A stretch of 40,394 nucleotides of DNA from Dehalococcoidia bacterium (GTDB lineage Bacteria; Chloroflexota; Dehalococcoidia; Lucifugimonadales; UBA3495): assembly GCA_963693555.1 (NCBI GenBank), contig CAVOAA010000003.1:1-40394 (forward strand), read 5' to 3'. How positions within the stretch are numbered: position 1 is the first letter of the stretch; each line of letters starts with the position of its first letter. A model generated the notes under the pieces. It worked only from the letters and a program-made list of their open reading frames with translations, searched no databases and had not been told where the DNA came from. The position numbers and the translations under genes are program-made. Positions 3,001 through 40,394 of this stretch are shown here, piece after piece.

Positions 3001-3319
3001 CTCCCGGCGCGGCGATTTCCTCTGGAGTACGGATATGACTCAACCACCGGTGCGCAACCGGCAGGGCCTGTCTCCTTCAACCCGCAAGCTGGAGATGGTG
3101 TCGGACGAAGAACTGGCCGAGGCGGTTTGCGTAGTGGTGGGCCAGTCCTACGGCATCGCCAGGGAGCAGACAACGGCCCCGGCAGCCAAGCTCCTGGGCT
3201 ACGGACGGACCACCGAAGTCATCTGGGAGCGGTTCGATAAAGTGATTAGCGGTCTGCTGTCAGAGGGCCGCTTGGAAGATGACGGCGGTCATCTGGTGTT
3301 GGCCAGCCCTTCCGAGTAA
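1..3319 (+). CDS. 5'-truncated SF1 (UPF1-like AAA_11/AAA_12) helicase fused to a Vsr-like/very-short-patch nuclease and a DUF3320-like C-terminus; DUF4011-helicase (Hhe-like) family
   Basis: The frame is open from base 2, so the start lies upstream of the window. Helicase motifs: KPVFMMSPLS, FDLVVFDEASQ, VVVGDSQQLPP, LRWHYRSR, VQGDERD, RRLNVLITRAR. Nuclease-like segment LGIECDG...ARDRDRLR..LEGLGWRLHRAWS. C-terminal VESPVH segment. Confidence 0.85.
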   Translation, partial: ARLLYMGPPKEHPFWGSQLTDLLPAAQEDIRRNLPVYKSALETLTERANNLAQTMRLAPPTDLAEVRQVVAAARRAIAAPEMDGFDLVNEQWGIRPDDVRSLVDTGSAMASLQAEFGSSLRLHAWDQDVSAERRVLETEGVKPWRLIIADYRRTRARLGGLTSGGVPGAKRLLALVIAIEEYQRNESVYREHESLGPELFRAIWQGVDSNWQRITRVTHWLLELNQEITDGLTPRALLVYLSRDPDPELLIELVEPIDQALVEFDNAAGQVARSLDLDVQRRFQQPGELSDQSLSQQLRMATGCLENTEGVHDIVRLNVQGTDCQAEGLQGVLEAAYQWSEGEDALIDAYDRAWFQGLWERALTERPELRSFDGAAHDQVRESFQELDLKILAHNRARLAQAHWERLPRNQGGGQLAVLRRQFEMRRRHLPIRQLLERAGNPIQAIKPVFMMSPLSIAAYLSPGGIEFDLVVFDEASQVKPVDALGAVMRGSQVVVVGDSQQLPPTPFFESAGQVEEYSEEETTSDIESILGLFAAQNAPSRMLRWHYRSRHDSLIAVSNQEFYGGGLVLFPSPDAGRESTGLFFHHLPDTVYGRGTTGTNPLEAEAVAQAVMEHARTSPELSLGVAAFSMAQTREVLDKLDDLRKDDHSGERFFAAHPDEPFFVKNLETVQGDERDVVMVSIGYGRAADGRVDLNFGPLNREGGERRLNVLITRARRRCEVFTNMTEDDIDLERTNSQGVRALRTFLAFAHRGILDAAPEDIMSADESGPVTRFQQSVAEFVKENGYLVAESPGWGTGTVDLAVSDPEHPGRYILGIECDGPSYNSARSARDRDRLRPQVLEGLGWRLHRAWSPEWASNPQRELERVLAAIDIPEPEPEPEPEPEIPELEVNIDVEEPEVIEPEPVIVRDEVPEPTAEPQVAKYQTAKPGINADDQGLAAASPLSMALWVAEVVKVESPVHVSEAARRIFAEAGIRRQGKGVQAALEEAFDHVVESGGVSRRGDFLWSTDMTQPPVRNRQGLSPSTRKLEMVSDEELAEAVCVVVGQSYGIAREQTTAPAAKLLGYGRTTEVIWERFDKVISGLLSEGRLEDDGGHLVLASPSE
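2624..2659 (+). repeat. (Pro-Glu)6 low-complexity linker within the helicase ORF
   Basis: cct gaa ccg gag ccg gaa cct gaa ccc gaa cct gag; lies between the nuclease and C-terminal domains. Confidence 0.9.
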
Positions 3320-4072: not shown

Positions 4073-5041
4073 CTAGGCCGGCACCATCTGGGGTGTGACC
4101 GCCGTGCACCAGTGAAGGTACTTGGGGTTCCGCCCCACCACGATATCGAAATACAGCTTCTGAAGCTGCATCGAAACTGGTCCGGGTTCTCCGGTGCCGA
4201 TGTCGCGGCAGTCCAAAGACACCACCGGGGTCAGGTGAGCGGCCGTTCCGCTGAGGAAAACCTCGTCGCTGAGGTAGAGTTCGCTCCGGTCGATGCTGCG
4301 CTCAACCACCTCGATACCCAGCTCGGCCTGGGCCAGTTGGATAATGGTCGCTCTGGTGATGCCGGGCAGGACGTTGTCTTCAATCCTGGGCGTATGCAGT
4401 TTCCCGCCGGCCACCATGAAGACGTTCTCGCCGGAGCCCTCGGAGACATGGCCGTCCTGGTTCAGGATGATGGCCTCGTCGAAACCGGCCAGAGTGGCTT
4501 CGGTCTTGGCCAGCATGCTATTTACGTAGATGCCCGCGCTCTTGATCTGGGTCGGGATCATGTTGTCGTCCACCCGTCGCCAGGATGATGTGCAGCAACG
4601 CAGGATATCTGTCCCCAGGTAATTGCCAAACGGCACAGTGATCAACGTGAAATCACTTTCCAGTTCCTGAAGCTTCAGGTTCGCAACAACTTCGGCGCTC
4701 TTGTAGGCAAGGGGCCGAATATAGATGTCCGATTGGTGCGAATTCTGCTCGATCAAGTCCACGGTGATATCACAGAGTTGGTCGGCGGTGTATGGGATAT
4801 CCAGCAATAGGATCTTGCAACCCCGAATCAACCTCTCGTAATGCTCGCGCATACGGAAGACGAAGATCTTGCCTTCTTCCTCGTTCCAGTTACCGCGGAT
4901 GCCCTCGAATACGGCGGTGCCGTAGTGCAGCGCATGGGTTGTTACACTCACCTTAGCCTCATCCATCGGTACCACAGCGCCCTTGAAAAAGGCGTGTAGT
5001 TTTTGATTGCCGTTGACGGACGTTGCTTTGTTAGTGCCCAC
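4073..5041 (-). CDS. ilvE: Branched-chain amino acid aminotransferase (PLP fold IV)
   Basis: HALHYGTAVFEGIR, YIRP, K..GIYVNS, GFDEAI, EGSGEN, LPGITR, DEVFLSGTAA. Confidence 0.92.
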   Translation of the reverse strand: MGTNKATSVNGNQKLHAFFKGAVVPMDEAKVSVTTHALHYGTAVFEGIRGNWNEEEGKIFVFRMREHYERLIRGCKILLLDIPYTADQLCDITVDLIEQNSHQSDIYIRPLAYKSAEVVANLKLQELESDFTLITVPFGNYLGTDILRCCTSSWRRVDDNMIPTQIKSAGIYVNSMLAKTEATLAGFDEAIILNQDGHVSEGSGENVFMVAGGKLHTPRIEDNVLPGITRATIIQLAQAELGIEVVERSIDRSELYLSDEVFLSGTAAHLTPVVSLDCRDIGTGEPGPVSMQLQKLYFDIVVGRNPKYLHWCTAVTPQMVPA

Positions 5042-5172
5042 GGTATTACCCCTTTTAATAAGAATGTGCGCTCGATTATAATCTGACAGCCTTGGCTAGT
5101 ACAACCTGGGCACACGACCAGACCCGTTGCTCATCAGATTCAAAGACACTTAAAGACATACGGGGGCAGGGA

Positions 5173-5565
5173 ATGCCGGAGCTAACCGCCCGGAACATGG
5201 CTTTCACGGTGTTGATCATAGCCACCATCGCCGCAGTATTGGCCGCCACGGTCCTACTGGCAAGACAGAATGACAACGCCGTGATCCAGATCATCCCCCC
5301 GCTGGACGCCCCTGCTCTGGCAACCGCCTCAAGCTCATCTGCCGGTCAGACCTCGACCGGGACCCTGATAGACCTTAACTCGGCTCCAGCCGGGCTATTG
5401 GACACCCTGCCCGGAATCGGGCCGGTACTGGCCCAAGCCATCGTCGACTACCGGGAGAACGTCCGCTTGTTCCAGTCTGTAGAGGAGGTCCAAGAAGTCG
5501 CAAAAATCGGACCGGTCACCTACGAAAACATCCGTGAACTAGTTACCGTGTCCGGGGAAAAGTGA
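5173..5565 (+). CDS. comEA: ComEA family DNA-binding protein (N-terminal TM plus helix-hairpin-helix)
   Basis: IDLNSA...LDTLPGIGPVLAQAIVDYRE...F.SVEE...V.KIG HhH pair; N-terminal hydrophobic anchor; directly upstream of comEC. ATG 5173 is preferred over the TTG at 5092. Confidence 0.85.
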   Translation: MPELTARNMAFTVLIIATIAAVLAATVLLARQNDNAVIQIIPPLDAPALATASSSSAGQTSTGTLIDLNSAPAGLLDTLPGIGPVLAQAIVDYRENVRLFQSVEEVQEVAKIGPVTYENIRELVTVSGEK

Positions 5566-5605
5566 TCTTGGTCCGGGCGTCGCTTTCAACGGCAGCTTTA
5601 CTCCC

Positions 5606-8033
5606 ATGAGATTGGCTTTCATGGTCGTCGCCTGGTTTCTAGGAGTCCTGATTGGCCTAGAAACCGATGCGCCGTTGGCTGCGTTGTTATTTCTCTCGGG
5701 AGCAGCGGTCACATCGGGGCTGGCGATGCGCCTGCGTCGGCTGCCGGTGTTCCCTGCGGTGCTGGTTTTGTTCTTGCTCCTGGGGTGATTCCGTTGTCAG
5801 CCCACCTTCGCCCTTTGAGTCCCTGCCACTAGCCGGTCAGACCGGGGCCGAGGTCACGCTTGAGGGTCAGATCAGCGGCTACCCTGAGTTCTCCGGCAGC
5901 CGTATCCGGTTTCAACTCGACCTGAAAGAGGTCATCGCCGACTCCGGCGCGATTTCCTTAGAGGGCCGAATCCTGGTCTACGCAAGGCCGTCTACCGACC
6001 TGGTGAGCCGCCGTTCACCGCCCTACTTCGATCACGGCGACCGAGTCACTGTCACCGGCAAACTGAGCCGTCCCGAGCCGTTTGGCGGGTTCGACTATCC
6101 AGCATACCTGGCAGGCCAAGGGATCACCGGAATCATGAACGCCGGATCCACTATCGTGACCGGAACAGCCAGTGGGTGGCGGGAGTGGCCCTACTCGCTG
6201 CGAAGCCGCCTATCGGAGAGCATCCAAGACACGGTCCCTTACCCGCAATCGGCCCTGGGGCAAGCGTTGCTTCTCGGATTAAAGAGCGACCTGCCGCCGG
6301 AGATGGTGCAGGACTTCCGGAGCACTGGAACCTCCCACCTGCTGGCCATATCCGGTCTGCACGTGGGCGTTTTGGTGGTGATGTTCCTGGCCGGGGCGTC
6401 GTGGTTATTGGGACGACGCGGTTGGTACTTCTTGGCCGTCCCGCTGATCGCAGTCTGGGCCTATGCCCTGGTCACTGGACTCCCGCCATCGGTTGTGCGG
6501 GCGGCGGTGATGGGCAGCGTGTATCTGGTTGCGATGGGGCTTGGCAGACCCGGAAGCATCCTGCCGGCATTGGCGTTTAGTGCGGGAGTCATGACCGCGG
6601 TATCTCCGGAGATAATCCAGAGAGTGTCTTTTCAGCTCAGCTTCGCCGCCATGGCCGGAATAGCGTTCACCCAGCCGTTCATTCCCCGGTGGGCGCCTGC
6701 AACAACAGGGCCGGGCCATGCCTGGTGGGAGCCTTGGGCTTACTCGTTGGTCCGCGCGCCCTTGATCGCACTGATAATCTCCTGGTCCGCCATGCTGGCT
6801 ACCTGGCCGCTATTGGCCTTTAACTTTAGGGAGGTGGCGCTGCCCGGCATCATCGTCACGGTCCTGGCGCTTCCAGCCATGCCATTCATCATGGCGGGAA
6901 CTCTGCTGGCGGCGGTGGTGGGTCTCGCCAGTACAACTCTTGGGCAGATCGTCGGCTGGCTGGTGTGGGTGCCGTCCAGTTATCTGATAGGGCTGGTTGA
7001 GCTAGCTCCGAAGTGGACGGTGCAGACCGACTGGGCCAACAACTGGTTGGTGGTGGCCTGGTACTCGGCTCTGGGCGCGCTTTTGCTACTGCTCAAGCCG
7101 GGTCGGTTGGGACGGGCGTGGTCGCGAGTCAAAGAGGGGATAAGAGCGCTGGCAGGCATACGGATGGAGCCGGTCAAGACTGTTCCGGTCGTGCTGGGCG
7201 CAGTGATGATGGCGGCGGCCGCCATTACGCTCTGGTGGCAGGTCGGGTCCGCAGGCAACGGCGACCTACACGTCTATTTCTTTAACGTGGGACAGGGCGA
7301 CAGTGCGCTGATCGTAACTCCGGGCGGGCGGCAGGTATTGGTAGACGGCGGCCCCAAGTCGGACAGCGCCATTCGGGCCCTTGACGGCGCAATGCCCAAC
7401 GGCGACCGCAGCCTCGACCTGGTGGTGGTGACCCATCTGGACTCGGACCATAGCCGGGGCCTGTTGGACGTCTTGGACAGCTACCAGGTGGGCGCGGTAC
7501 TCTCGGGGGCCAGTTCCACTGAATCCGCGATGTTTGCCCAGTGGCAGGCCAGCGTAGCACGGAACCGCGTTGATGTGATCTCCGTGCATCAGGGATACCG
7601 GCTGGACCTTGGCTCCGGGGTGATGGCGGAGGTGCTGAACCCAGTGTCCGCAACGTCCGGTCAGACGGCCAACAACGGTGCGTTGGTGCTGCGGGTGACC
7701 TACGGTGACATCAGTTTCTTACTGACGGCTGACGTCGAAGCCGCGACGGAGTCATTATTGGCGGCCAGCCAGGCGGGGATTCAGAGCACTGTTTTGAAAG
7801 TGGCCCATCACGGCAGCAAAACATCTTCTACCGCCGGTTTTCTGGACGCAGTGGACCCGGCGGTGGCGTTGATATCCGTGGGTGGAATCAACTCGTTCGG
7901 ACATCCCAGCCCCGAGGTGGTCGGGAGGTTGTTGCTACAGACAGTGCGCGAGAACCTGTACCGGACCGACGAGGACGGCGAGGTCGAGTTCATCACTGAC
8001 GGCCGAGATCTATGGGTTAACACGGAGCGGTGA
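5606..8033 (+). pseudogene. comEC: ComEC/Rec2 competence protein, split by a frameshift near 5782-5790
   Basis: The 60-aa hydrophobic N-terminus (5606-5788) stops at TGA. The remainder is in the +1 frame with HLLAISGLH, SFQLSF, NVGQGDS, THLDSDH, LKVAHHGS, FGHP and YRTDEDG motifs. Confidence 0.8.
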
Positions 8034-29615: not shown

Positions 29616-31469
29616 CTAGCGGTCCAGCCAAAGGTCTTCGTGCTTGAAGCTGTACTGCACGGTTGCAGGTGGGTTGAAGCCCTGGATGTCTTCGTGGACT
29701 ACCCAGAAGAACTTGCCCCAATAGAGGGTCACCCAGTGACCATCGGAGAAGCCTTGCGAGATGTCGTCAGGGTTGGTCGGAATCAGGAAGTCTTCCAGAT
29801 CCTTCAACTGCTGGCGGCGTACTGCGGCGTCTTGCTCAACCTTCTGTTCTTCGAAGGCGTCGCGGACCACAGCGGGCTCCCAGTCGGTGTAGTTACGGGT
29901 GGCGCCCTTCAGGTATACGCCGCCCAATAGCGCGTCGGGGTCAAGGACGGTCATGCCCTCACCCTGACAAGCCAGTTCCCAATCGCCTACAGCCCCTTCT
30001 GGCCGAGAGGTGCCAAAGAGGGAATAACCAGCCGCGCTTTCATGGGTCGCAATGTCGCCTTCGATACCAAGAGCGTTGCTGAGCTGCTGTTTGATGACCG
30101 AGCAGACGTCAGGGTAGTTACCGACCTGGCGGGCGTCGTACTTGGTCTCGAAACCTTCGGGGAATCCGGCATCAGCCATGAGCTGCTTGGCGAAAGCGAT
30201 GTCAGCCTCTCCGCCTGCGCTGTCCTTGTCTCGGATGCCGGGGAACGTGGAGCATTCCTCGAGGGTGTAGCCCATGCCCCAGAGGGCGCAAGGAATGTCA
30301 CCGGTGCCGTCTTCCAAGATGTCGTTGATCTGGACCCGGTCAACGGCCAGGTAGATGGCTTTGCGGATCCTTGGGTCAGTGAAAGGCTCGGCCTTCCGGT
30401 TGATCATCAGACCCCAGTTACGGGAACCAGGCATCTCGTTGGCAATGACATGGCCATTGGGGGAACCGACGGTGTCGGCGTCCAATTCCAGGTATTCGGT
30501 GGGGGACAGGTTGGAGAACCCACCGTTCATCATGTCGACCTGGCCAGCTTTGAACTGCGCGATCAGCGTACCAGTGTCAGTGATGATGAAGTGATCAATG
30601 CTGTCAAAGAAGGGGAGTCCCTCTTTGAAGTAATTCTCGTTCTTCACGACCGAGTACAGGTTACCGCGCTGGTACTCTATCAGCCGGAATGGTCCAGAAC
30701 CGGAACCGGAATCGATGATTCCCTCTGCCTGGTTCAGGTCAACGCCTGCTTCCAAGATGTGCTTGGGCAGGATCTTGGCGTAATCCAAAGCGAGGAAGTT
30801 GATGAACGCACCAGATGCGAAGGAAAGGTTCATCTCGACGGTATTGTCGTCTATCTTCTTGATTCCGCCATCGGCCGTGGGAAGGGTGTAGTTACGGAAG
30901 AGACCGGAACGACCCATGGAGTTCTCAGGGTCCATATAACGGGAGAGTGCGAAGACCACGTCATCTGCGGTCACGTCCACACCATCATTCCATACAGCGT
31001 CTTCATTTACATGGAAGGTGAATGTTGAACCGCCGTTGGAGACGTCCCAGCTATCGGCCAAGTCGCCAACGAGTTCAGTGGTGTTGGCGCCGGTGGAGAA
31101 CTGCACCAACTGGTTATACAGTTGGGAGTACGCCTGAATGCTGGAGAGGGATGCGGAACCCAGTGGGTCCCAGTCCCGGGTATCTGCATACGCGGACATA
31201 CGGATGTTTCCGCCGTAATTCGCGTCGCCGCCGGTCATTGCCGGAATTGCAGTGGCGTCCATCACCGCGGGCACCGGCGTGCTCGAAGAGCCACCGCCAG
31301 AGGAACCGCCGCTGGAAGAACCACCACCTGATGGCACTGCCGTCGGTGACGGCGCCGACCCTGATGGCGTCGCGGTAGCCGACGATCCGCACGCAACTGC
31401 GACGATCAATAACATCGCTGCCACGATTGGAAGTAGGGTTTTGACGTTGAGTAACCTATGCCTCGACAT
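29616..31469 (-). CDS. ABC transporter substrate-binding lipoprotein, family 5 (paralog 1)
   Basis: Lipobox-like VAVAC plus Ser/Gly/Pro linker; GDLA.SW, F.....W.DG...TADDV.F, GSGPF, D.RIRKAI..A.DR. ATG 31469 follows GAGGAGG. Confidence 0.92.
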   Translation of the reverse strand: MSRHRLLNVKTLLPIVAAMLLIVAVACGSSATATPSGSAPSPTAVPSGGGSSSGGSSGGGSSSTPVPAVMDATAIPAMTGGDANYGGNIRMSAYADTRDWDPLGSASLSSIQAYSQLYNQLVQFSTGANTTELVGDLADSWDVSNGGSTFTFHVNEDAVWNDGVDVTADDVVFALSRYMDPENSMGRSGLFRNYTLPTADGGIKKIDDNTVEMNLSFASGAFINFLALDYAKILPKHILEAGVDLNQAEGIIDSGSGSGPFRLIEYQRGNLYSVVKNENYFKEGLPFFDSIDHFIITDTGTLIAQFKAGQVDMMNGGFSNLSPTEYLELDADTVGSPNGHVIANEMPGSRNWGLMINRKAEPFTDPRIRKAIYLAVDRVQINDILEDGTGDIPCALWGMGYTLEECSTFPGIRDKDSAGGEADIAFAKQLMADAGFPEGFETKYDARQVGNYPDVCSVIKQQLSNALGIEGDIATHESAAGYSLFGTSRPEGAVGDWELACQGEGMTVLDPDALLGGVYLKGATRNYTDWEPAVVRDAFEEQKVEQDAAVRRQQLKDLEDFLIPTNPDDISQGFSDGHWVTLYWGKFFWVVHEDIQGFNPPATVQYSFKHEDLWLDR

Positions 31470-31601
31470 GTAGCCTCCTCGTTTGTGCAACTGGGTTTGT
31501 TTCCTCTATGGTCGAGCCTCACAAGAAATAACGCCGTCAGTCCTCCTCGGGGACTTGGGCGTATTTCCCGCTAGGGTTGTGAATATTAGACACAACTTCC
31601 G

Positions 31602-31819: not shown

Positions 31820-33634
31820 TTAACGATCCAACCAGAGATCCTCATGCTTAAAGCTGTATTGAATGGTAGCCGGTGCGTTGAAGCCCCGGATGTCCTCGTG
31901 GACCAGCCAGAAGAACTGCCCCCAGTACAAAGTCACCCAGTGGTTGTCTTCGAATCCCTGGGAGATGTCGTCCGGGTTGGTGGGAATCAGCCAGTCTTCG
32001 TAGGTCTTGAGCAGTTCCCGTCGCTTGGCCGGGTCCGACTCAACCTTTTGCTCTTCGAAGGAATCCCTGGCGATCTGGGGTTCCCAGTCTGTGTAGTTCC
32101 TGGAGGCGCCCTTGATGTAGACGCTGCCTAGTAGAGCGTCTGGGTCGATCACGGTCATGCCTTCACCCTGGCAGGCCAGCTCCCAGTCGCCGTCACCCGC
32201 GCGGGCGGTTGCGTACAGCGCGTATCCAGCGGCGCTCTCGTGGGTGGATATGTTGCCTTCGATACCGAGGGTCTTGGAAAGCTGCTGTTTGACTATGCTG
32301 CATACGTCTGGGTAGTTACCTACCTGACGGGCGTCATATTTCACGTCAAAGCCCTCGGGGAACCCGGCATCGGCCATCAGCTGTTTGGCGGCGGCTATAT
32401 CAGCCTCTCCGCCGGCGCTATTCTTGTCGCGAATTCCTGGAAATTGGGCGCACTCCTCAAAGGAGTAACCCATGCCCATGAATGCACAGGGAACATCGGC
32501 GGTATCGTCTTCAAGGATGCTGTTGAGTTGCGCACGGTCCAGAGCCAGGTAGATGGCTTTCCGAACTCTGGGGTCCTGTAGAGGACCCACTTTCCGGTTC
32601 ATCATCAGGCCCCAGTTTCTGCTGCCGCCCAACGGGTTGGCGATGATGTGACCATTCGAAGAACCAACGGTGTCGGCGTCCAATTCTTTGTATTCGGTGG
32701 GCGAAAGGTTCGAGAACGCGCCGTTCATCATGTCGATCTGGCCGGCTTTGAACTGAGCGATCAACGTGCCTGTGTCGGTGATGATGAAGTGGTCGATGCT
32801 ATCAAAGTAGGGTCGCCCCTCTTTGAAATATTGGTCGTTCTTTGCGACCGAGTAGGTGTTTCCACGTTGGTACTCGGTCAATTTGAACGGACCGGAGCCT
32901 GAAAGGTTTTCGATTACCCCCTCAGCCTGGTTCAGGTCTACGCCTGCTTCCAGGATGTGCTTGGGCAAGACCTTGGCGTAGTCCAAAGACAGGAAGTTCA
33001 GGAATGCTCCGGAAGCAAAGGACAGGTTCATTTCGACGGTGTTCGCGTCGATCTCCTTGATCCCTCCATCCGCCACCGGCAGGGTGTAGTTGCGGAAGAG
33101 TCCGGAACGGCCGATGGAGTTCTCGGGGTCCATATAGCGGGCCAGTGAGAAGACCACATCGTCGGCTCCCAGGTCTTCGCCGTCATGCCACTTTGCGTTT
33201 TCGTCCAAGTGGAAAGTAACGGTTAGTCCGTCGTCTGAAACGTCCCAGCTGGTGGCTAGGTCACCAACGATCTTCGAGGTTTCGACGGTGTCGAACTGGA
33301 CCAGCTGGTTGTACAGCTGGGAGTAAGCCTGAATGCTCGAAAGGGATGCGGAACCCAGGGGGTCCCAGTCACGGGTGTCTGCGTACGCGGACATGCGGAT
33401 GTTTCCGCCGTATTTCGCGTCACCGCCGGTCATTGCCGGCACTTCAGTAGAGTCCATTGCCGCAGGGACTGGCGTGCTGTCAGAAGAACCACTGCCGCTA
33501 CCTGATGGCACTGCCGTCGGTGAAGGTGCCGATCCCGATGGCGTCGCCGTGGCCGACGATCCGCACGCAACTGCGACGATCAATAACATCGCCGTTACGA
33601 TTGGAAGAAGAGTTTTGAACTTGAGCCTGGGCAT
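31820..33634 (-). CDS. ABC transporter substrate-binding lipoprotein, family 5 (paralog 2)
   Basis: Same architecture as 29616-31469 with long identical stretches (e.g. YGGNIRMSAYADTRDWDPLGSASLSSIQAYSQLYNQLVQF, QYSFKHEDLWLDR). Confidence 0.92.
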   Translation of the reverse strand: MPRLKFKTLLPIVTAMLLIVAVACGSSATATPSGSAPSPTAVPSGSGSGSSDSTPVPAAMDSTEVPAMTGGDAKYGGNIRMSAYADTRDWDPLGSASLSSIQAYSQLYNQLVQFDTVETSKIVGDLATSWDVSDDGLTVTFHLDENAKWHDGEDLGADDVVFSLARYMDPENSIGRSGLFRNYTLPVADGGIKEIDANTVEMNLSFASGAFLNFLSLDYAKVLPKHILEAGVDLNQAEGVIENLSGSGPFKLTEYQRGNTYSVAKNDQYFKEGRPYFDSIDHFIITDTGTLIAQFKAGQIDMMNGAFSNLSPTEYKELDADTVGSSNGHIIANPLGGSRNWGLMMNRKVGPLQDPRVRKAIYLALDRAQLNSILEDDTADVPCAFMGMGYSFEECAQFPGIRDKNSAGGEADIAAAKQLMADAGFPEGFDVKYDARQVGNYPDVCSIVKQQLSKTLGIEGNISTHESAAGYALYATARAGDGDWELACQGEGMTVIDPDALLGSVYIKGASRNYTDWEPQIARDSFEEQKVESDPAKRRELLKTYEDWLIPTNPDDISQGFEDNHWVTLYWGQFFWLVHEDIRGFNAPATIQYSFKHEDLWLDR

Positions 33635-33863
33635 ATAACATTCTCCGATAATCTTTATGGTACAGAATCAAATTAACGACATCGAATAATCGGCCTGGAA
33701 ACTCAGGCGTGACTTAGGCGTCTTTCTTACCGAATTTACTTGTTCGAACTGCTTGAATCCAGCCGTACAAGTGATATCACGAATTATAATATTGCCTATT
33801 CGGTAGTATTAGAGGCTATTCGGTGTCAAGCAGTTACGGCAAAATTGTTCGATGGGAAACCAG

Positions 33864-33910
33864 GCCCAAGGCCGTGCCCAAAACTAGCCTAAAGCCGTGG
33901 CCAGGAACTA
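33864..33910. repeat. Imperfect 23/24-bp tandem duplication
   Basis: GCCCAAGGCCGTGCCCAAAACTA / GCCTAAAGCCGTGGCCAGGAACTA. Confidence 0.7.
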
Positions 33911-33954
33911 TAGGGGAGGTGGGCCTAGTCAGACGATCGCCCCAAGTGGCCATC

Positions 33955-34009
33955 CTCGTGCCCAGGTTGCTCATGTCCAGGTTGCTCGTGTTCAGGTTGC
34001 TCGTGTCCA
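33955..34009. repeat. 15-bp tandem repeat, three full copies plus partial copies
   Basis: CCAGGTTGCTCATGT, CCAGGTTGCTCGTGT, TCAGGTTGCTCGTGT with flanking partial units. Confidence 0.92.
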
Positions 34010-34066
34010 CTGTCGGCGGGTCTACCGGGTTTACGGGTTTACCGGGCCAGCATCAAACCCAAACGC

Positions 34067-34891
34067 CTACACGGGCGTCTTACGATATGGCTCCAGTAAT
34101 ATCCGGACGTCGGTGTCCAGATCAGCGTCTACGAAGAAGGGTTCAAAGTCGGCAGACCGAGTCCAGATCCTGGCCGTCTGCACCAACGCCGCCCGTTCCA
34201 CCGAAGCCGGCCAGCGCAGGATGCTGATGTCAGAGTTATCAGCGTGCGCAGCGGCCGTGGACCCGTTCAAGGCGCGAGTCATTGTCAAGTCGTTGCTGGA
34301 GATCGCAATGACCAGCATCTGTTCCGTCCCGATGAGAGCCGTCTGACCGATCTGAAACTGAGTGCCGTCATCCACTGCCACGGTGGTTTTTGTGGTGTCC
34401 ATGGAGGCATCGTTCAGGTCCGTGCCGCTGTCCTCGGGGAATCTGGCGTAGCCCCAGACCCCTGTGATCTGGAAATTCTGTTCCCCGGTTGTGAACCCGT
34501 CCGCATTATTTCCTTTAGACCGTGACTTTAATGCGGTGTATGGGCTCCCCCAGTGCTGGGTGGGAGCGGCGTTGTACGGCTGCAGCAAATAGTCGCTGCT
34601 GGCCCACGTTTTGTCGAAGGTAAGATCGCCGCTACCGTCTTCTTTCAGTGATGTGACTGAGATCAGGTCCGGCACTATCAATTGCGCTGTTCCCCGGCCA
34701 TCGAACACCAAGGTCTCGGTCTTGGGATAGAAATGGCGGTTGCAGTATCTATCGACCCAATCAGACACCGACAGCAGCAACTGGAACAACTCGTCGTCGT
34801 CGCCCGTTCCGCTGGCCGGGTCTTTCAGCAGGCTGTCGTCTTTCAGTTTAGTCAGGTCACCGTAGAGTGACCGGTACGCTTCACGGCCCAT
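34067..34891 (-). CDS. Phage head-tail connector (gp6/gp15-like adaptor) with an inserted beta-rich domain
   Basis: DD.L..LL..VS..VDRYCNRHF, DL.SVTSLK, DY.L.P.N, ITGVWGY...WP..V..A.L....RIW, D.DV..LL.PYR pattern; lies downstream of the capsid gene; AAGGAGG RBS. Confidence 0.75.
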   Translation of the reverse strand: MGREAYRSLYGDLTKLKDDSLLKDPASGTGDDDELFQLLLSVSDWVDRYCNRHFYPKTETLVFDGRGTAQLIVPDLISVTSLKEDGSGDLTFDKTWASSDYLLQPYNAAPTQHWGSPYTALKSRSKGNNADGFTTGEQNFQITGVWGYARFPEDSGTDLNDASMDTTKTTVAVDDGTQFQIGQTALIGTEQMLVIAISSNDLTMTRALNGSTAAAHADNSDISILRWPASVERAALVQTARIWTRSADFEPFFVDADLDTDVRILLEPYRKTPV

Positions 34892-34966
34892 GTGCGCCTC
34901 CTTATAGAAATTTGACCCTCTCCCGTAATGCGAACAGGTGAGGCGGTCACCCTAGGCAACATCGCC

Positions 34967-35362
34967 TCACGACTCCTCGGCGTATTCGATGATGATCTTG
35001 TGGGTATTCGAGGGAGCGAATCCCCGCCACCGGCCGCTGAGCACCTCATTCCGCCGGCCCCGAGGGCCCTGCCTGCTCTGAAAAACGCGGGTCGCTGCGG
35101 CGCCTTGGTTGGGCACGGCCAGGACATCGATGCTCTTGTTACGTGCGGTGATCATGTTGGGAGCGTCACCGAAATACAGCTCCCACAGATGCCTTCCGTC
35201 AGCGGCGTCCTGCAAGACCTTGGTACGGATGAAACGGATGCGGCGGCCCGGTCTGGGGGTTAGGATCGTCTGTTGGCTGGTATCGGTGCTTGAGTCAACG
35301 ACCCGGACCAGCAACCGGAATGTACGCTGCCGGGGCCTTACCCGGTGGCGGCGCCTGGCCAA
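34967..35362 (-). CDS. Hypothetical virion-accessory-like protein, paralog of 35366-35758, Arg-rich N-terminus
   Basis: TTG start after GGAG; shares TP..GRRIR, DGRHLWELY.G, QGPRG.R.EVLSGRW and HK.I.EY.EES with its neighbour. Confidence 0.75.
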   Translation of the reverse strand: MARRRHRVRPRQRTFRLLVRVVDSSTDTSQQTILTPRPGRRIRFIRTKVLQDAADGRHLWELYFGDAPNMITARNKSIDVLAVPNQGAAATRVFQSRQGPRGRRNEVLSGRWRGFAPSNTHKIIIEYAEES

Positions 35363-35365
35363 CGG

Positions 35366-35758
35366 CTATGACTCCTCTGTGTATTCAACGATCACCTTGT
35401 GGACCGTCGTTGGCGGCGTACCCAGCCACCGGCCGCTGAGGACTTCGTCCCGCTCTCCCCGTGGTCCCTGGTCCCGAAGAAACGTCCTGGTGGCAGCTTC
35501 TCCGTCGTTGGGTATGTCGAGAATGTCGATGGCCTTCTCGGGGTCGGTGGTGATATCTGTACCGGTGCCAAGATACAGCTCCCATAGGTGTCGTCCGTCC
35601 GTTTGCTCTTGGACCACCCGTACCCGCAGCACCCGTATCCGCCGGCCTTTTGAGGGGGTGACCAGGGTGTTGCGGGTATTGGATGTGTTGGAATCGTGGG
35701 CCCTGACCAACGCCACGTAAGGCCGGCGACGGATACTGGCCGAGCGGCGGGTGGTCAT
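35366..35758 (-). CDS. Hypothetical virion-accessory-like protein, paralog of 34967-35362, Arg-rich N-terminus
   Basis: ATGA overlap with the upstream gene; clear paralogy with the downstream ORF. Confidence 0.75.
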   Translation of the reverse strand: MTTRRSASIRRRPYVALVRAHDSNTSNTRNTLVTPSKGRRIRVLRVRVVQEQTDGRHLWELYLGTGTDITTDPEKAIDILDIPNDGEAATRTFLRDQGPRGERDEVLSGRWLGTPPTTVHKVIVEYTEES

Positions 35759-36012
35759 TTCAAGACCCGCCCGAAGCCGGCGCCGCCCAGGATTCCAATG
35801 GACGTGAGCGCCGCCCGGAGAGCTGTGCCGTCGATACCCAGGCTGAGGGCATATCCCTCCAGCCCGGCGATGGTCAGGATCCCCGCTAAAGTCACCAACG
35901 CCCAGTTCTTGGCGGACCAGTTCTTGGGCTTGGCATTTTCCAATTTGGGCAAACTGGGTTTGTGAGGCTTGGGGGCGTGAGGTATCAGGTTGCGTAGCCT
36001 GAAGATGGTCAA
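35755..36012 (-). CDS. Small two-TM membrane protein, holin-like (85 aa)
   Basis: TTG 36012 follows AGGAG and is in frame with track ORF 35755-36168; basic N-terminus then WALVTLAGILTIAGL and ALTSIGILGGAGFG; the holin label is inference. Confidence 0.6.
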   Translation of the reverse strand: MTIFRLRNLIPHAPKPHKPSLPKLENAKPKNWSAKNWALVTLAGILTIAGLEGYALSLGIDGTALRAALTSIGILGGAGFGRVLK

Positions 36013-36115
36013 CGTGTCTACTCCTATCGTGTTGATCTCCACGTGCAGGTCGTATTCAACTGCGCGGGCAGGTCGTCTTGAACTCCGCGCGCCGGACTTG
36101 ATCAATGGTCGTGGA

Positions 36116-36598
36116 TTATTCCTCCACTCCGAAGACCATGCCCGACACGGTGCTGGTGACCGTGACATCCAATTCCAGCGTATTGTCGGCTGCGGTCAGG
36201 GCAACGCCCTCTCCGATATCCTGGAGGCTGTGCACGCCCGCGGCCGCCAAGAGCGGCGATTGGGAGATTACCGTGCCCGCTGCAGCGCTGTCCTGAAATT
36301 CCAAGGCTGCTCCGGCCGTGCTGGACAGGCTCCAACCGAGGAGCCGGACGGTTTTGTCGCTGGCCGGCGTCCAGACCGTGACCGGCGTACCGGCGGTGAT
36401 GGCCACCGCGTCGATCACCTTGAAGGTCACAGCGCGGTATTGATCTCTGGTGATCAGCCGCCCCGCCGTGTCGACCAGCAAGTAGACGTTGTCGCCATCG
36501 GCCACTCCCGGAGGAGTGGCCTGGTACTTGGAGCCGATCCGTGTCAGCCGTTCTTTGGTGTCTGCGGGGCTGTCATGAGGCCCGTCTGCGTATCCCAT
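36116..36598 (-). CDS. Hypothetical virion-accessory-like protein (beta-rich C-terminal domain)
   Basis: 160 aa, co-oriented in the capsid operon; VWTPASDKTVRLLG resembles the TP..GRRIR motif of the two downstream paralogs. Confidence 0.7.
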   Translation of the reverse strand: MGYADGPHDSPADTKERLTRIGSKYQATPPGVADGDNVYLLVDTAGRLITRDQYRAVTFKVIDAVAITAGTPVTVWTPASDKTVRLLGWSLSSTAGAALEFQDSAAAGTVISQSPLLAAAGVHSLQDIGEGVALTAADNTLELDVTVTSTVSGMVFGVEE

Positions 36599-36698
36599 GT
36601 TGAATCGATTCCCCTTTTGCTGATTTCTTGGTTAAGTCTTTTTGGTTAAGTTTTTAATGGACACCCCGGATGTGCAGCCCGGGGTCTGGCGGGGCCGA

Positions 36699-37040
36699 TT
36701 ACGAAAGGGGTACGTATTCGATGATGACGGTCCCTGCTAGGCTGGCGGCATTCTGGACCAGAATCTTGCCGGTGATGTAGTCATTGGTCCCGCCGTTCTT
36801 TTCCCATTTCAGGGCTTCACCACCGTTGGACCCGGCATCGTCGTGCCGGTCGGCAACTCCTGTCGCATTGAGGTCGAGACCGTCGATGATGCTGTCGCCG
36901 GTGCTCGTGGCATTGGCGTTGCCGGAAGCCATGGCTTCCACTATGTAGCGTTTGGCAACATAGACGATGCCCGACTGGTCGGGCGGGATCATGTTCTTGA
37001 CGGCCTCGGCCACCGGGTCCTTCTGACTAAAGGTTGTCAT
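36699..37040 (-). CDS. Putative capsid decoration/cement protein
   Basis: 113 aa, Gly/Ala/Asp/Thr-rich, directly downstream of the major capsid gene; AAGGAG RBS; function inferred from position. Confidence 0.6.
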   Translation of the reverse strand: MTTFSQKDPVAEAVKNMIPPDQSGIVYVAKRYIVEAMASGNANATSTGDSIIDGLDLNATGVADRHDDAGSNGGEALKWEKNGGTNDYITGKILVQNAASLAGTVIIEYVPLS

Positions 37041-37159
37041 GCGATCTCCTTAATATTGTTAGAAATACGCTCTGTCCGAACTCGCACTGACTGAGCAAAG
37101 TTGAGCCCGGAGCCATGCTCGAATCAATAACACGGCCCCATGAAAACACGGCTGCGCCG

Positions 37160-38491
37160 TTAGACGCCGGTTATGTTGTAGTGGAGGGCGGTGTGGGTGG
37201 CGGTCGACCGGCTGCCGGAGCGTTCCTGCAGCCCGATCCTAAAGCTGACCACCATGATGTTCTGCCGCTTTTGAGCGTCACGGACAGTCTCGATCGTCAG
37301 CTCGCGTTTGAAGCCGACCCGCCACTGGGAGCGGTTCACGATCAGCAGCCGACCGGTGTTGGTTCCGTTGCCAGCGTCAGTCACCTTGCCGTCGGTATCG
37401 GCCGGGGCCATCTGCTCGGAGACGATCACCGGTATGCCTTCGACCGCGCCGAGTTGCCCGGTGAGCAGGGTAGCCTGGGGGCCGAACTTGTCTAATGTGC
37501 GGAAATTGGACACGCTGAGCGCCCTGATGAACGTGTTCACATCGGTGACGTAGACCGTCTCGGAAGGCCGTACCCCAAACTTGCCCAGCTTGGAACGGAC
37601 CTCATTGAACATGTCATCAGAGACAGCAGCATTGTGGTCGGTGCCCTGGCCGGTGTTGTCCACCAACGGCAGGTGCAAGAGGCCGTCGAATCCCAGAAGC
37701 CACTGTCCCTTGCCGGCGTCGGTGCTGGCGATTGTCGCGCCGTCGGCGTTGATGTTGTTGGTAACCGTGGTGTCGCCGTTCAAGATCACGTCGTCGATGA
37801 CCTCCCGGGCGTTCCGCATCAGGCTCCGGCGCAGCTCCTCCATCATGGCGATCACCGAGTCCTCGTCCAGGTCGTAGGACCAGGGGACTTCGGCCACCAA
37901 TTCGTAGGCGGTCAGCGTTTGGCGGGCGGTGGTCAGGCCGGTGGATTTGGTGGCCACGTTTTCGGTGCCGGGGTACCAGTTCACATCGCCCAGTTGCAGA
38001 GGGATCTGGAACGGATTGCTAGGCATCTGGATCGTATTGAAAAGGGGTGCGACCGAAGTCTCCAGATTGACGTCGTCCCAGAGGGCACGGGCCTCCTGAG
38101 TGTCAACCAACTCGTCTCCCGTGCCGGACGTTGTGGAGTCCATGGCCGCTTTCAGGTTGGACTGCCAGTCCTCCAGCATCCGGGGATTCACTCCGGTGGG
38201 CTCGCGCATCTGGGCGGTAAGCAGGCTGCGGACACAGGCCATGTCCAGGTGGTCCAGGCCGGCATATTTTCCGAAGCCGACCCTGGAGCGGTCGTCGCCG
38301 CCGTAACGGGAAAGCAAGGCCCGTTTTTCTCCGGTCCGCCACATCTCCTGTACCTTGCTCAGTTGGCCGGAGATACGGTCCATCTCTTCCTTAAGAGGTG
38401 GGATCTCCGTGTCGATGCGGGCGTCATAGAACTCTCGTATACCGGACAATTCCCGTTTGATCAGTTCCAAGTCTTGTGCCGCGATAGTCAT
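37160..38491 (-). CDS. HK97-fold phage major capsid protein with an N-terminal coiled-coil scaffold (delta-like) domain
   Basis: KAAMDSTTSGTGDELV (typical start of mature HK97 capsid), I.MPSNP..IP, S.DLDEDS, ID..ILNGD, GQLG.VEGIPVIVSE; follows a prohead protease; ATG 38491 after AAGGAG. Confidence 0.9.
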   Translation of the reverse strand: MTIAAQDLELIKRELSGIREFYDARIDTEIPPLKEEMDRISGQLSKVQEMWRTGEKRALLSRYGGDDRSRVGFGKYAGLDHLDMACVRSLLTAQMREPTGVNPRMLEDWQSNLKAAMDSTTSGTGDELVDTQEARALWDDVNLETSVAPLFNTIQMPSNPFQIPLQLGDVNWYPGTENVATKSTGLTTARQTLTAYELVAEVPWSYDLDEDSVIAMMEELRRSLMRNAREVIDDVILNGDTTVTNNINADGATIASTDAGKGQWLLGFDGLLHLPLVDNTGQGTDHNAAVSDDMFNEVRSKLGKFGVRPSETVYVTDVNTFIRALSVSNFRTLDKFGPQATLLTGQLGAVEGIPVIVSEQMAPADTDGKVTDAGNGTNTGRLLIVNRSQWRVGFKRELTIETVRDAQKRQNIMVVSFRIGLQERSGSRSTATHTALHYNITGV

Positions 38492-38595
38492 ATACAACTC
38501 CTTGGTTTTACTAATGGATGCTAGAGACGATGGTCATGAGTGCTGAGTCCTGGGCGGCGAGCCCTGCTGAGAGCTTTCAGGCTTTTTAAGAAAGG

Positions 38596-39390
38596 TCAGA
38601 TCCGGCCCGAACGGAGGACAGATACCAGGTCTGACACCGGGTCCGAAGCTAAGCCGGCAATCTGCTCAGGCCTTGGCAGTTCCTTGGCGTTGTTCTCCAG
38701 CTCGAACACCGTGTCGGAGATCTCGCTGGCCAGTTTTCCCAGCTCGTCTACCTGTGAAGCCAGCACCGGCCACAGGGCAGCCAGGGTGTTCAGGTCCGGC
38801 TGGTCAGAGCGCCGAAGGGCGTTGCGGTTGGCCGGGACAGGGACTGCGCTAACCTCCAGCAATTCTTGCTCCAGGAAGCGGAGACCCAGGAAGGCGCCGG
38901 TCTTTTCGTCGCGGCGCTCTTCATAGCGCAGGGGCTTGAATCCCACCGAGACGCCCCACTGGAAACCCGACCGGTATAGGGAAGCGATCTCCTGGGCGAA
39001 TTCGGTGGGCGCGAACTGCATGTTGGCCAGCAGCCGGTGCGGCTCCGTCCACAGCTTCGCCGCGCGGCCGATGGCGGGTTGGCGGTAGTCGTGGGCCCAG
39101 AGCAAGACCGGGTTCTCCCGGTAGGAGTCCAACACCCAGCCGTCGGCGGAGATGATGTCTCCGTGCCGATCTACGTCGTCAGTGGAGAGGACGAATGTGA
39201 TCGTCTGCTCCTGTTCCTCACCGGAATGCCCTTTGGCATGGAACTCTTTCAATGGACAAGCGGCGTTAGATTCGACAGAGTTGGTCCATTTTGTGACCAC
39301 GGGCGCCTCGCCCGCGCCACGGCTGAAGGCTTGCAGTGATTGCAACAACAGGCGGCGTTCCCGCCCTGTTTCCTGGGTGCTAGTCGGCAT
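38596..39390 (-). CDS. HK97-family prohead maturation protease
   Basis: ST..VDRHGDII...GW....Y..NPVLLWAH....PAIG, GVSVGF.P, QELLEVSAVPVPAN.NAL (His/Ser/Glu catalytic motifs intact); AAGGAG RBS. Confidence 0.92.
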   Translation of the reverse strand: MPTSTQETGRERRLLLQSLQAFSRGAGEAPVVTKWTNSVESNAACPLKEFHAKGHSGEEQEQTITFVLSTDDVDRHGDIISADGWVLDSYRENPVLLWAHDYRQPAIGRAAKLWTEPHRLLANMQFAPTEFAQEIASLYRSGFQWGVSVGFKPLRYEERRDEKTGAFLGLRFLEQELLEVSAVPVPANRNALRRSDQPDLNTLAALWPVLASQVDELGKLASEISDTVFELENNAKELPRPEQIAGLASDPVSDLVSVLRSGRI

Positions 39391-39464
39391 CTTCTCTCCT
39401 TTTTTTGTTTGGCTTTGATCGGTCGTTTTGGTGTTCCGGTGTTTCCATACTTCCGTGACCGGGC

Positions 39465-39500
39465 AAAAAACAAGGGACAGACCACAAAGGGTCTGTCCCT
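39465..39500 (-). terminator. Intrinsic terminator inside the 5' leader of the capsid operon
   Basis: Minus strand: AGGGACAGACC-ctttgt-GGTCTGTCCCT-TGTTTTTT; no minus-strand gene ends here. Confidence 0.75.
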
Positions 39501-39572
39501 ACGAGCAATTCCATATCCGGCCCAACTGCCGGCCTGCCGATTTAACGCAGACGGTTGTTTAAGCTGGAATTG

Positions 39573-39602
39573 AGTGTAGAAACGCGCTTTCCAGGGTGTC
39601 AA
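39573..39602 (-). promoter_or_regulatory. Sigma70-type promoter facing the capsid operon
   Basis: Minus strand TTGACA-N18-TACACT. Confidence 0.6.
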
Positions 39603-39799
39603 CGCGGGCCTGACATCAGAGAAGAACCACCTATCAAAGGTGACTATGAACCGCGCGGAGAATCTCCGGACACAGTGGTCCGACCAGGTGTTCGACGGCG
39701 TTGACTGGGTAATTCTGTCTGTGTTAGCTTTGTTAATACACAACTGGCGGAAAAACCCGCCAGAAATCTTCCCAGATAGTCTCTCAAGGAGAACAGGCA

Positions 39800-40216
39800 A
39801 TGGAAGTTACTACCCTCGCCATCGAGAAGCTCAAGGAAGTCATGCAAGAACAAGGTGAAACTGACGGGTCGCTGCGCGTAGTCGCGATACCTGCCGAGGC
39901 AGGCGGCCTTCAATATATGCTGACCATGGAAAACGAGACCCAGGCCGATGACACTATCATCGCTAAAGAGGGAGTCAAATTCCTCATGGACTCTGATAGC
40001 GCGCCCTTCCTGGAAGAGGCGACTATCGATTACGTCGAGAACCTGGGCGGACAGGTCGGGTTTGTCATTAACAACCCGATGTTCTCCAGCGCCGGCGGCG
40101 GCTGCGGCGGCGGATGCTCCTGCGGAAGCGGAGGCGGCGGCGGATGTGGCGGCGGCGGCGAAGAAAGCAGCGGCGGTGGATGCGGTTGCGGCAGCGGCGG
40201 TTGCGGCAGCCACTAA
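39800..40216 (+). CDS. HesB/IscA family (A-type Fe-S carrier-like) protein with a Gly/Cys-rich C-terminal tail
   Basis: VT..A..KLKE, LRV......GLQY.L, DD......GV....D..S..FL..ATIDY......GF.I.NP; AAGGAG RBS. Confidence 0.85.
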   Translation: MEVTTLAIEKLKEVMQEQGETDGSLRVVAIPAEAGGLQYMLTMENETQADDTIIAKEGVKFLMDSDSAPFLEEATIDYVENLGGQVGFVINNPMFSSAGGGCGGGCSCGSGGGGGCGGGGEESSGGGCGCGSGGCGSH

Positions 40217-40243
40217 GCCAAAATCGACACAAACCAGAAAAAC

Positions 40244-40276
40244 AAATGGGCCCCGATGAATCGGGGCCCATTTTTT
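40244..40276 (+). terminator. Intrinsic terminator after the iscA-like gene
   Basis: AAATGGGCCCCGA-tgaa-TCGGGGCCCATTT followed by a T-run. Confidence 0.88.
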
Positions 40277-40394
40277 ATTGGAGCAATCTAGACTGCCTTT
40301 TTCTGGATTTGTCTTTTGCAACAGGTGCCCCCGTCCCCCGCAAGCGGGAGAGGGGGTTTTTGAATTCCCTTCATAAATCCATCATCTGAGGTAA

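Follow-up and report, generated by a model that had tools for sequence, protein, structure and literature searches.

A phage-type head-gene locus of SAR202 Dehalococcoidia, candidate part of a dispersed and domesticated gene transfer agent-like system

The stretch of DNA analysed here (hereafter the window) is the entire 40,394-bp contig C3 of a metagenome-assembled genome of a SAR202 Dehalococcoidia bacterium (G000; 288 contigs, 3.05 Mb, 88.9% complete with 3.8% contamination), and it harbours an operon of phage-type head genes embedded between cellular genes. We consider it probable, with moderate confidence, that this operon forms the head locus of a particle system of tailed-phage origin, domesticated long ago and similar to a gene transfer agent (GTA), which is dispersed over several places of the chromosome and vertically inherited in SAR202 Dehalococcoidia. 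These bacteria, uncultured and dominant in the deep ocean, are among the most abundant cells of the dark ocean. The original prediction, made from the letters of the window, had proposed a stand-alone head operon, co-opted by the host either as the capsid module of a dispersed GTA-like particle or as a nanocompartment; the first option fits best, with the large terminase and, in relatives, the portal at a second locus, the tail-tube gene of two order-level relatives at a third and a leader common to the loci. The main comparison set consists of 61 relatives, and counts within the genus cover 20 genomes including G000; the genus label of one genome (G014) differs between the listings of capsid and portal genes.

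Eight co-oriented open reading frames (ORFs) occupy the minus strand at 34067-39390, as had been claimed, between a divergent iscA-like gene and ABC-transporter genes. The first encodes a prohead maturation serine protease of 264 residues (S78, HK97 gp4-like; 38596-39390, minus strand), which matches phrog_617 (4e-23), phrog_80 (5.3e-18) and PF04586 (3.4e-7; 31 bits, cut-off 21) and is located directly upstream of the gene for the HK97-fold major capsid protein (MCP) of 445 residues (37160-38497, minus strand), recognised by phrog_10 (1.4e-14) and PF05065 (7.3e-8; 32.6 bits, cut-off 24.2). Translation of the MCP likely starts at an ATG two codons into the ORF, and the family matches start at residues 105-130, the first approximately 110 residues, which lie upstream of them, being a putative scaffold-like N-terminal domain. 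The last gene (34067-34891, minus strand; phrog_442, 5.2e-16) codes for a head-tail adaptor of 274 residues with an inserted β domain at about residues 150-225, whose AlphaFold2 model (pLDDT 84.6) finds its best fold matches in the head-to-tail interface of phage Mycofy1 (E 7.6e-4) and in the neck of the gene transfer agent RcGTA (6toa_C; E 0.04, TMt 0.57). The family matches agree with the identities proposed earlier for protease, MCP and connector, and so do the start signals with the proposed ribosome-binding sites or coupled starts of most genes: Shine-Dalgarno-like boxes precede the genes of the protease, the MCP, the adaptor and three of the five small proteins in between (g113, g160 and g131), and the g137 stop overlaps the g130 start. 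The host flanks were also correctly recognised, with a HesB-like Fe-S assembly gene on one side (iscA-like; 39800-40216, plus strand; PF01521, 1.5e-10) and, on the other, permease genes and the gene of an ABC-transporter solute-binding protein (SBP; SBP_bac_5, PF00496, 1.4e-66; 31820-33634, minus strand) which, directly downstream of the adaptor gene, occupies the position where other genera carry tail genes. Calling all eight genes intact was too strong, as g113 is without 41 strongly conserved residues.

Terminase and portal genes normally accompany such a head module. Because contig C3 terminates 1 kb upstream of the head operon and thus of the protease gene, their absence is not judgeable from the window. 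The description of the operon as stand-alone and devoid of a terminase holds for the window but not for the genome, in which an intact large terminase gene (TerL) without stops is encoded on another contig (C84, 7579-9027). Its product is 84-90% identical to the TerL of sister species (84% to that of G003), with a ratio of nonsynonymous to synonymous substitution rates (dN/dS) of 0.08-0.16; in relatives, TerL matches phrog_2 at 6e-33 to 7e-40 (G003, 7e-40). PF03354 (TerL_ATPase) proved unsuitable as a finder, with only two weak, unrelated matches in 61 genomes, TerL being visible through PHROGs only. A single 62-kb contig of G003 matches both C84 and C3 in colinear order, approximately 8 kb between the two being unassembled, which by synteny places TerL about 20 kb from the protease gene with host genes in between. 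A protein of 63 residues with a CxxC...CxxC (zinc-ribbon) signature, conserved in G003, G016 and G036, precedes TerL. A search of the genome of G000 for orphan terminase, portal and tail genes, as suggested by the original prediction, thus recovered the terminase, but neither portal nor tail genes.

Among the relatives, a portal (PF04860) is encoded by 28 of the 61 genomes, nearly the same as the 30 of 61 that carry the MCP, mostly at a single locus; TerL lies directly upstream of each portal, and the portal is always at another place than the head operon. Portal and MCP are 20-24 kb apart in this genus, and also in two or three further genera (G027, G033); elsewhere the distance is either 4-16 kb or between 110 kb and 1.6 Mb, depending on the family. 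In distant versions represented by IMG/VR contigs (L064, L066, L067, L068 and L072; MCP 62-67% identical), the portal gene directly follows the adaptor gene on the same strand, the order in L066 being tail-tube, a gene for a protein of about 700 residues, adaptor and portal. To judge from these sequences, the gene order has been reshuffled and the gene set kept. As a separate observation, TerL of G024 is interrupted, its N- and C-terminal parts being about 2.8 kb apart (L025, G024:C1:776000-795999, at about 4980-7830), and the opposite-strand gene in between codes for a fusion of an N6/N4 DNA methylase with an Mrr-like nuclease.

The two loci share a leader. In the window, a promoter-like box, TTGACA-N18-TACACT in the extended -35 context GTTGACACCYTGGA (39573-39602, minus strand; 10 of 12 consensus matches), is followed about 70 nt downstream by an 11-bp hairpin, AGGGACAGACCC/GGTCTGTCCCT, with a subsequent T-run (39473-39500, minus strand), a terminator-like arrangement placed between the box and the ribosome-binding site of the protease gene. 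The host-type promoter that had been postulated is upheld in so far as box and hairpin are both conserved in 11 aligned genomes of 4 genera, but a single match to the box in the region is fewer than the 2.6 expected by chance. On contig C84, upstream of TerL, GTTGACACCYTGGA recurs with an 18-nt spacer, TAGCGT, a hairpin of the same family and a T-run. In the 3.05-Mb assembly, the hairpin motif occurs at two places only, 5' of the protease gene and 5' of TerL, with GTTGACACCYTGGA before each. The hairpin pattern is present in 29 of 61 relatives, with most of the listed sites just upstream of protease or TerL genes and that of G047 just upstream of the tail-tube gene; a reversed control pattern yielded 5 matches in total. 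G008 and G017 have lost the genes and still keep the hairpin. Exceptions to the pattern are six sites in G043 and single sites in G020, G025, G028, G035 and G037. The G043 sites, spread over its contigs C3, C10, C23, C29, C43 and C62, may represent a repeated element or loci of a different system; this genome lacks the MCP, and its sole TerL-like sequence is a weakly matching fragment.

In an alignment of 21 leaders, 98.3% of the stem cells pair, all slid controls reaching at most 60%. One stem pair covaries (AU 9, GC 7, CG 3, GU 2) and three pairs alternate between GC and GU; as G-U pairs occur in the stem, the structure appears to be formed by RNA of the sense strand. Since the terminator-like hairpin is situated between a consensus promoter and structural genes, conditional read-through would be the corresponding mode of control, an arrangement which is reminiscent of the late-gene control of lambdoid phages.

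The head operon has the inheritance of a chromosomal gene cluster. MCP identity to the window follows taxonomic rank: members of the genus reach 91-98%, those of the family 67-84% and those of the order 55-70%. Across the class as sampled, 12 of 301 genomes carry the MCP at E<=1e-20, namely G000, five genomes from two other families of the order and six belonging to a single family in a different order, and a pattern scan with one genome per species retrieved 119 loci encoding an MCP relative. The arrangement of iscA, protease to adaptor, and SBP genes recurs in independent assemblies of the genus and in G026 and G027, with G033 keeping iscA, protease and MCP only; the operon adjoins iscA in four genera (this genus and three further), and the SBP gene follows the adaptor gene in G003, G004, G005, G011 and G026. 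Synteny next to iscA, proposed earlier as a check, was thus found, with junctions shared by independently assembled genomes from four genera. In GC content, the head block is like contig C3 and the rest of the genome. Synonymous divergence (dS) is 0.65 for MCP versus 0.58 for iscA in the comparison with G016, and 1.12 versus 0.99 in that with G003; as the dS of the two genes is equal, the block has been in the chromosome for as long as its neighbours.

Selection on the operon was assessed by pairwise dN/dS (NG86) against ten relatives. The ratio is lowest for the MCP (0.02-0.11), followed by the adaptor (0.04-0.10), and ranges from 0.10 to 0.28 for the protease, 0.04-0.19 for g113, 0.10-0.19 for g160, 0.02-0.17 for g130 and 0.07-0.40 for g131, compared with 0.04-0.06 for the host gene iscA and 0.14 for the host SBP gene. 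For g137, the conserved part (residues 52-137, 6 comparisons) gives 0.11-0.23; a ratio above 2 over its full ORF was discarded as an artefact of the non-conserved N-terminal extension. As dN/dS of all eight genes is well below 1, they are more than chance ORFs. On the basis of these comparisons, the head module is regarded as chromosomally fixed, vertically inherited and under purifying selection, and the earlier view that the module was co-opted, and is neither a recent prophage nor one in simple decay, is borne out by synteny, rank-wise identity, host-like dS and low dN/dS. There is a weak hint of expression in two 100%-identical contigs of one metatranscriptome with a depth of about 2, for which DNA carry-over is possible; the single RNA run, with a word share of 0.07, contains just three very short contigs, of which two are identical to the window, and does not suffice for a claim of expression.

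A close phage counterpart was not encountered. Among 807 records of cultured phages, all MCPs are less than 60% identical, and the nearest, from a Microcystis phage and large (about 110-120 kb) Aeromonas and Vibrio phages, reach 21-24%; in agreement with the original prediction, the block is therefore not close to an intact active phage, the best cultured phage MCP being 24% identical. IMG/VR holds 41 matching 'viral' contigs, all of at most 16 kb, of which those at least 74% identical show the same head-gene order and in many cases include the iscA or SBP gene. A more ordinary, partly broken prophage-like cluster with an MCP 55% identical to that of the window is present in another genome (L024, G044:C1:950000-969999). 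It combines a split TerL (phrog_38), a portal, an SPP1 gp7-like minor head protein, a repressor-like gene, protease, MCP and phrog_442 adaptor with a transposase and a Neck1 tail-completion protein, and may resemble the ancestral phage.

Two variants of the system can be distinguished by what accompanies the adaptor. In five genomes of other genera (G024, G036, G031, G020 and G037), the adaptor gene is followed by a tail-terminator gene (phrog_17840, 1e-19 to 1e-26), a tail-tube gene (phrog_10528, 1e-8 to 3e-14) and a gene for a protein of about 700 residues, which has no Pfam, PHROG or Protein Data Bank (PDB) match and whose nearest Atlas clusters are nameless viral ones; G024, G031 and G036 additionally encode a protein of about 114 residues. 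The tail-tube profile recovers a gene in 10 of 61 relatives and in 0 of 20 genomes of the genus, in G047 and G056 at a third locus about 1.8 Mb and 2.6 Mb, respectively, from the MCP. A profile of the g130/g131 family, on the other hand, is found in 13 of 61 genomes, comprising this genus, G026, G027, a remnant in G021 and a weak match in G049, and never in the same genome as the tail-tube gene.

The proteins g130 (35366-35758, minus strand) and g131 (34967-35362, minus strand) are paralogues with 52% identity. The AlphaFold2 model of g130 is a high-confidence eight-stranded jelly roll (pLDDT 92), with the trimeric cement protein of phage KHP40 as best PDB match (E 8.7e-4, TM 0.54-0.56); many small Caudovirales proteins match it at TM 0.6-0.7, and it also resembles small satellite-virus coat proteins and fibre-tip domains. 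A prediction with three copies of g130 gave a score of 0.23 (mark 0.42), and the family profile found no match among PDB sequences. g130 is a candidate for a capsid cement or decoration function or for a receptor-binding module, a role which, the jelly-roll fold being common, we can only infer from the model. Within the genus, orthologues of g130 and g131 are 45%-93% identical compared with 91-97% for the MCP, and g131, with orthologues 47% to 86% identical, is the most variable gene of the operon, a variability at the sequence level which is typical of surface-exposed parts. Comparison of the family profile with the tail-tube and tail-terminator families returned probabilities below 2%, hence the jelly-roll genes are not shifted tail genes.

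None of the five small proteins has a Pfam match above cut-off or a PHROG match. The candidate decoration protein g113 (36699-37040, minus strand) has conserved homologues, and g160 (36116-36598, minus strand) is a phage-type protein with nameless, mostly viral Atlas clusters as nearest relatives (score 0.97). The earlier grouping of three related β-rich proteins holds for the paralogues g130 and g131 but does not extend to g160 or g113, for which a relation to them was rejected at profile comparison probabilities below 5%. The small membrane protein g137 (35755-36168, minus strand) had been called holin-like, a label to which a single clear hydrophobic segment (residues 89-112) corresponds. 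It is conserved only over about residues 46-137 and has candidate internal starts with boxes resembling ribosome-binding sites, so that the start as judged from the alignment is probably internal.

A GTA-like system could operate on these components as follows. A first locus comprises the promoter, the terminator-like leader hairpin, the small zinc-ribbon protein, TerL and the portal; a second one the promoter, the same leader hairpin, protease, MCP, accessory head proteins and adaptor; and, in other genera, a third one the tail-terminator and tail-tube genes, either directly 3' of the adaptor gene or separate. Transcription from the conserved promoter would stop at the leader hairpin unless some signal permits read-through, upon which the loci would be expressed together. 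The protease would then mature an HK97-type shell, TerL would load DNA via the portal and the adaptor would close the shell, the product being a GTA-like DNA-packaging particle which may also transfer DNA. In the genus of G000, two jelly-roll proteins are present in place of the tail genes, and because of this replacement the particle would be tail-less. That SAR202 bacteria carry an independently evolved DNA-packaging system whose loci are co-switched by leader-terminator read-through, and that one clade makes tail-less, DNA-filled capsids with jelly-roll surface proteins replacing the tail, is a more far-reaching proposal which we put forward as a tentative possibility.

The copy in G000 itself is probably crippled, as the portal gene is deleted and g113 internally deleted; it probably makes at most empty shells and is likely heading for loss, as in several sister species. 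These defects, and further ones in the genus, weigh against a functional particle system. In the G000 bin, PF04860 finds no portal and the G003 portal as query gives a best E of 0.056. Compared with G003, C84 is missing a stretch of 4.1 kb from the last TerL codons onward, which in G003 encodes the portal, two small ORFs (one with a GAF domain) and a hybrid histidine kinase, and similarity of C84 to the closest relative, G016, likewise stops exactly at the TerL end. A true deletion of the portal is the explanation in which we have fair confidence, a misjoin or an unbinned contig being the alternatives. In g113, the internal deletion is in frame and removes a block of 41 residues that is almost invariant in 9 of 9 other aligned homologues (about 154 residues). 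Tail genes were not found in G000 and the four sisters with a full gene set, save sheath-like genes in G005; the searches employed the tail-terminator profile, the protein of about 700 residues and the families PF10145, PF04984 and PF06199 (tape-measure, sheath and Phage_tail_2), the family searches being positive in control genomes. The sheath-like genes of G005 (G005:C46:104274-107326; PF04984, 1.2e-15), seen in one of the five genus genomes searched, probably stem from a contractile system or prophage of their own that has nothing to do with the head module. For a tail-less particle we know of no means of DNA delivery, and no antiterminator or regulator was identified for the leader.

The state of the system across the genus is mixed. 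Four of the 20 genomes have intact MCP, portal, TerL and adaptor genes (G003, G005, G015 and G016), and five have real defects: besides G000, these are G002 with a split portal gene, G011 with TerL fragments only, no portal and a split adaptor gene (a second, intact one being on another contig), G013 with stops in MCP and TerL, and G014, in which the MCP is truncated and the adaptor missing. In G004 and G010, contig ends interrupt the sequence next to TerL; only fragments are left in G001, G006, G007, G018 and G019, and no gene was found in G008, G009, G012 and G017. Outside the genus, portal or TerL are split or stop-bearing in G024, G025, G027, G030, G032 and G056. The claim that the locus is free of pseudogene debris is therefore true of the window, g113 excepted, but does not extend to the genus, with its frequent broken and vestigial copies. 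Such a pattern of decay is also expected from relaxed selection, and pairwise dN/dS, which averages long branches, cannot reveal selection after the loss of the portal. Several of the broken genes are in long-read assemblies, and their frameshifts may be sequencing errors. From the distribution of intact and broken sequences, the system is seen to be kept over long times yet lost repeatedly.

These losses lead to the first alternative, a role of the capsid alone, in which the shell is kept without portal or DNA as a nanocompartment, storage shell or decoy and the TerL and portal genes are leftovers, an explanation we regard as unlikely. It would account for the MCP being the best-conserved gene (dN/dS 0.02-0.11) and for its integrity in genomes where packaging genes are lost or broken (G000, G011, G002, G027, G030, G056 and G024), that is with the portal deleted in G000, TerL in fragments and no portal in G011, TerL interrupted in G024 and the portal split or stop-bearing in G002, G027, G030 and G056; the genus without detected tail genes would also be in line with it. 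With encapsulins, the locus shares a shell protein of HK97 fold specified by a cellular genome and, in G000, the lack of a portal. However, the SAR202 system differs from them by its maturation protease, adaptor and TerL and by the portal in relatives, its MCP matches the phage family PF05065 and no encapsulin family, and no cargo-like gene was recognised. TerL, portal and adaptor are moreover co-conserved with the MCP in most carriers, with purifying selection on each, TerL and the head operon stand under one common leader, an adaptor is pointless without a portal, and several of the 'broken' portals derive from long-read assemblies with possible frameshift errors. The nanocompartment option of the original prediction is not supported, as the portal loss is lineage-specific, occurred beside an intact, selected TerL and contrasts with the 28 of 61 relatives in which a portal is encoded.

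That the genes are an inert remnant of an ancient prophage, never used and slowly decaying, is quite improbable. Fragmentary and stop-containing copies in many genus members, the portal and g113 deletions in G000 and the lack of an identified tail, lysis enzyme or regulator (no genome-wide search for lysin families was made) would be expected of a remnant, but frames of 445, 450 and 274 codons have stayed open across family and order divergence at dN/dS of 0.02-0.16 and dS of about 0.6 to more than 2, the regulatory leader is conserved with compensatory change, and genes were retained when their order was reshuffled. Capsid-forming phage-inducible islands share a content of TerL, portal, protease, MCP and adaptor without a tail, and a helper-dependent element of this kind, which fills its own heads with DNA and borrows tails from an infecting phage, would explain both an adaptor without a tail and the same gene set without tail genes in the genus variant, but it is very unlikely here given that there is no tRNA at the locus (nor in the window) and no integrase among the scanned neighbours of the head operon (no genome-wide search for integrase families was made), that host genes separate the two fixed loci, which are about 20 kb from each other rather than forming one contiguous island, that synteny is stable and dS host-like, and that other genera have their own tail-tube genes.

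The dispersed GTA-like system which we favour can be set beside known ones. With GTAs such as RcGTA it shares structural and packaging genes of a tailed phage without replication, lysogeny or integration genes at the examined loci, vertical inheritance and purifying selection, several chromosomal loci which are apparently controlled together, and the resemblance of the adaptor model to the RcGTA neck described above, DNA packaging and transfer being putative in the SAR202 system. It differs by an independent origin, the nearest cultured relatives of its MCP being the Microcystis, Aeromonas and Vibrio phages named above, by a far smaller gene set, with the RcGTA-type tail family PF06199 not found in G000, by a genus without a tail, and by the promoter and terminator-like leader at both loci. 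HK97-type temperate siphoviruses have head modules with the same S78 protease, PF05065 MCP and phrog_442 adaptor and, as in the other SAR202 genera, a tail terminator (phrog_17840) and tail-tube protein (phrog_10528) after the adaptor, whereas in SAR202 TerL and portal are at another locus and not upstream of the protease, and the module is without tape-measure or baseplate genes and fixed in the host chromosome. For putative domesticated loci of Thaumarchaeota derived from Caudovirales, a GTA-like reading has been weighed against provirus remnants (Krupovic et al., 2019; PMC6563490). These loci also conserve a morphogenesis module without replication genes or att sites, but they belong to another domain and an unrelated element and, as a figure legend of that study indicates, are contiguous with tail genes included, whereas the SAR202 loci are dispersed, carry a common leader motif and could be followed through an order, with estimates of selection. 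They are the nearest published parallel encountered; a literature search, judged mostly from abstracts, brought up nothing of this kind for SAR202, Dehalococcoidia or Chloroflexi.

If functional, the loci would add to Chloroflexota a GTA-like element of independent origin, which would matter for gene flow in the deep ocean and for measurements of dissolved and 'viral-fraction' DNA there. Tail-less DNA-filled capsids, should they be real, would amount to a way of exporting or exchanging DNA that has so far gone unrecognised. Caution is advised as these loci get counted as viruses, as in the 41 IMG/VR contigs. The common promoter and terminator leader provides a handle for finding the signal and the regulator, and the tail-tube variant, the jelly-roll variant and natural knock-outs such as the portal-less G000 are a ready comparative series.

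Ten of the larger ORFs of the window outside the operon, covered by a family scan, are ordinary cellular genes. Solute-binding proteins of the SBP_bac_5 type are encoded by tandem paralogues at 29616-31490 and 31820-33634 (minus strand), which have near-identical lipoprotein-like N-termini and low-complexity Ser/Gly/Pro linkers; relatives carry one to two copies at this place. Downstream of the iscA-like gene, at 40244-40273, a perfect 13-bp palindromic hairpin with T-runs on both strands resembles a bidirectional terminator. A SAM/SAH riboswitch overlapping it scored 20.9 bits compared with a gathering score of 40 and is regarded as a chance match; together with Acido-1, it was the sole Rfam match in 33600-40394, and both, being sub-threshold, were rejected. 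At the other end of the window, a protein of 1100 residues (17-3319, plus strand) with AAA_11/AAA_12 helicase, REase_MTES_1575 nuclease and DUF3320 domains may, from its domain composition, be a defence-type helicase-nuclease. GTA recipients import DNA via competence proteins, and a ComEC/Rec2-type competence channel gene (PF03772, 7e-48), with an additional metallo-β-lactamase domain, is located at 5667-8033 (plus strand).

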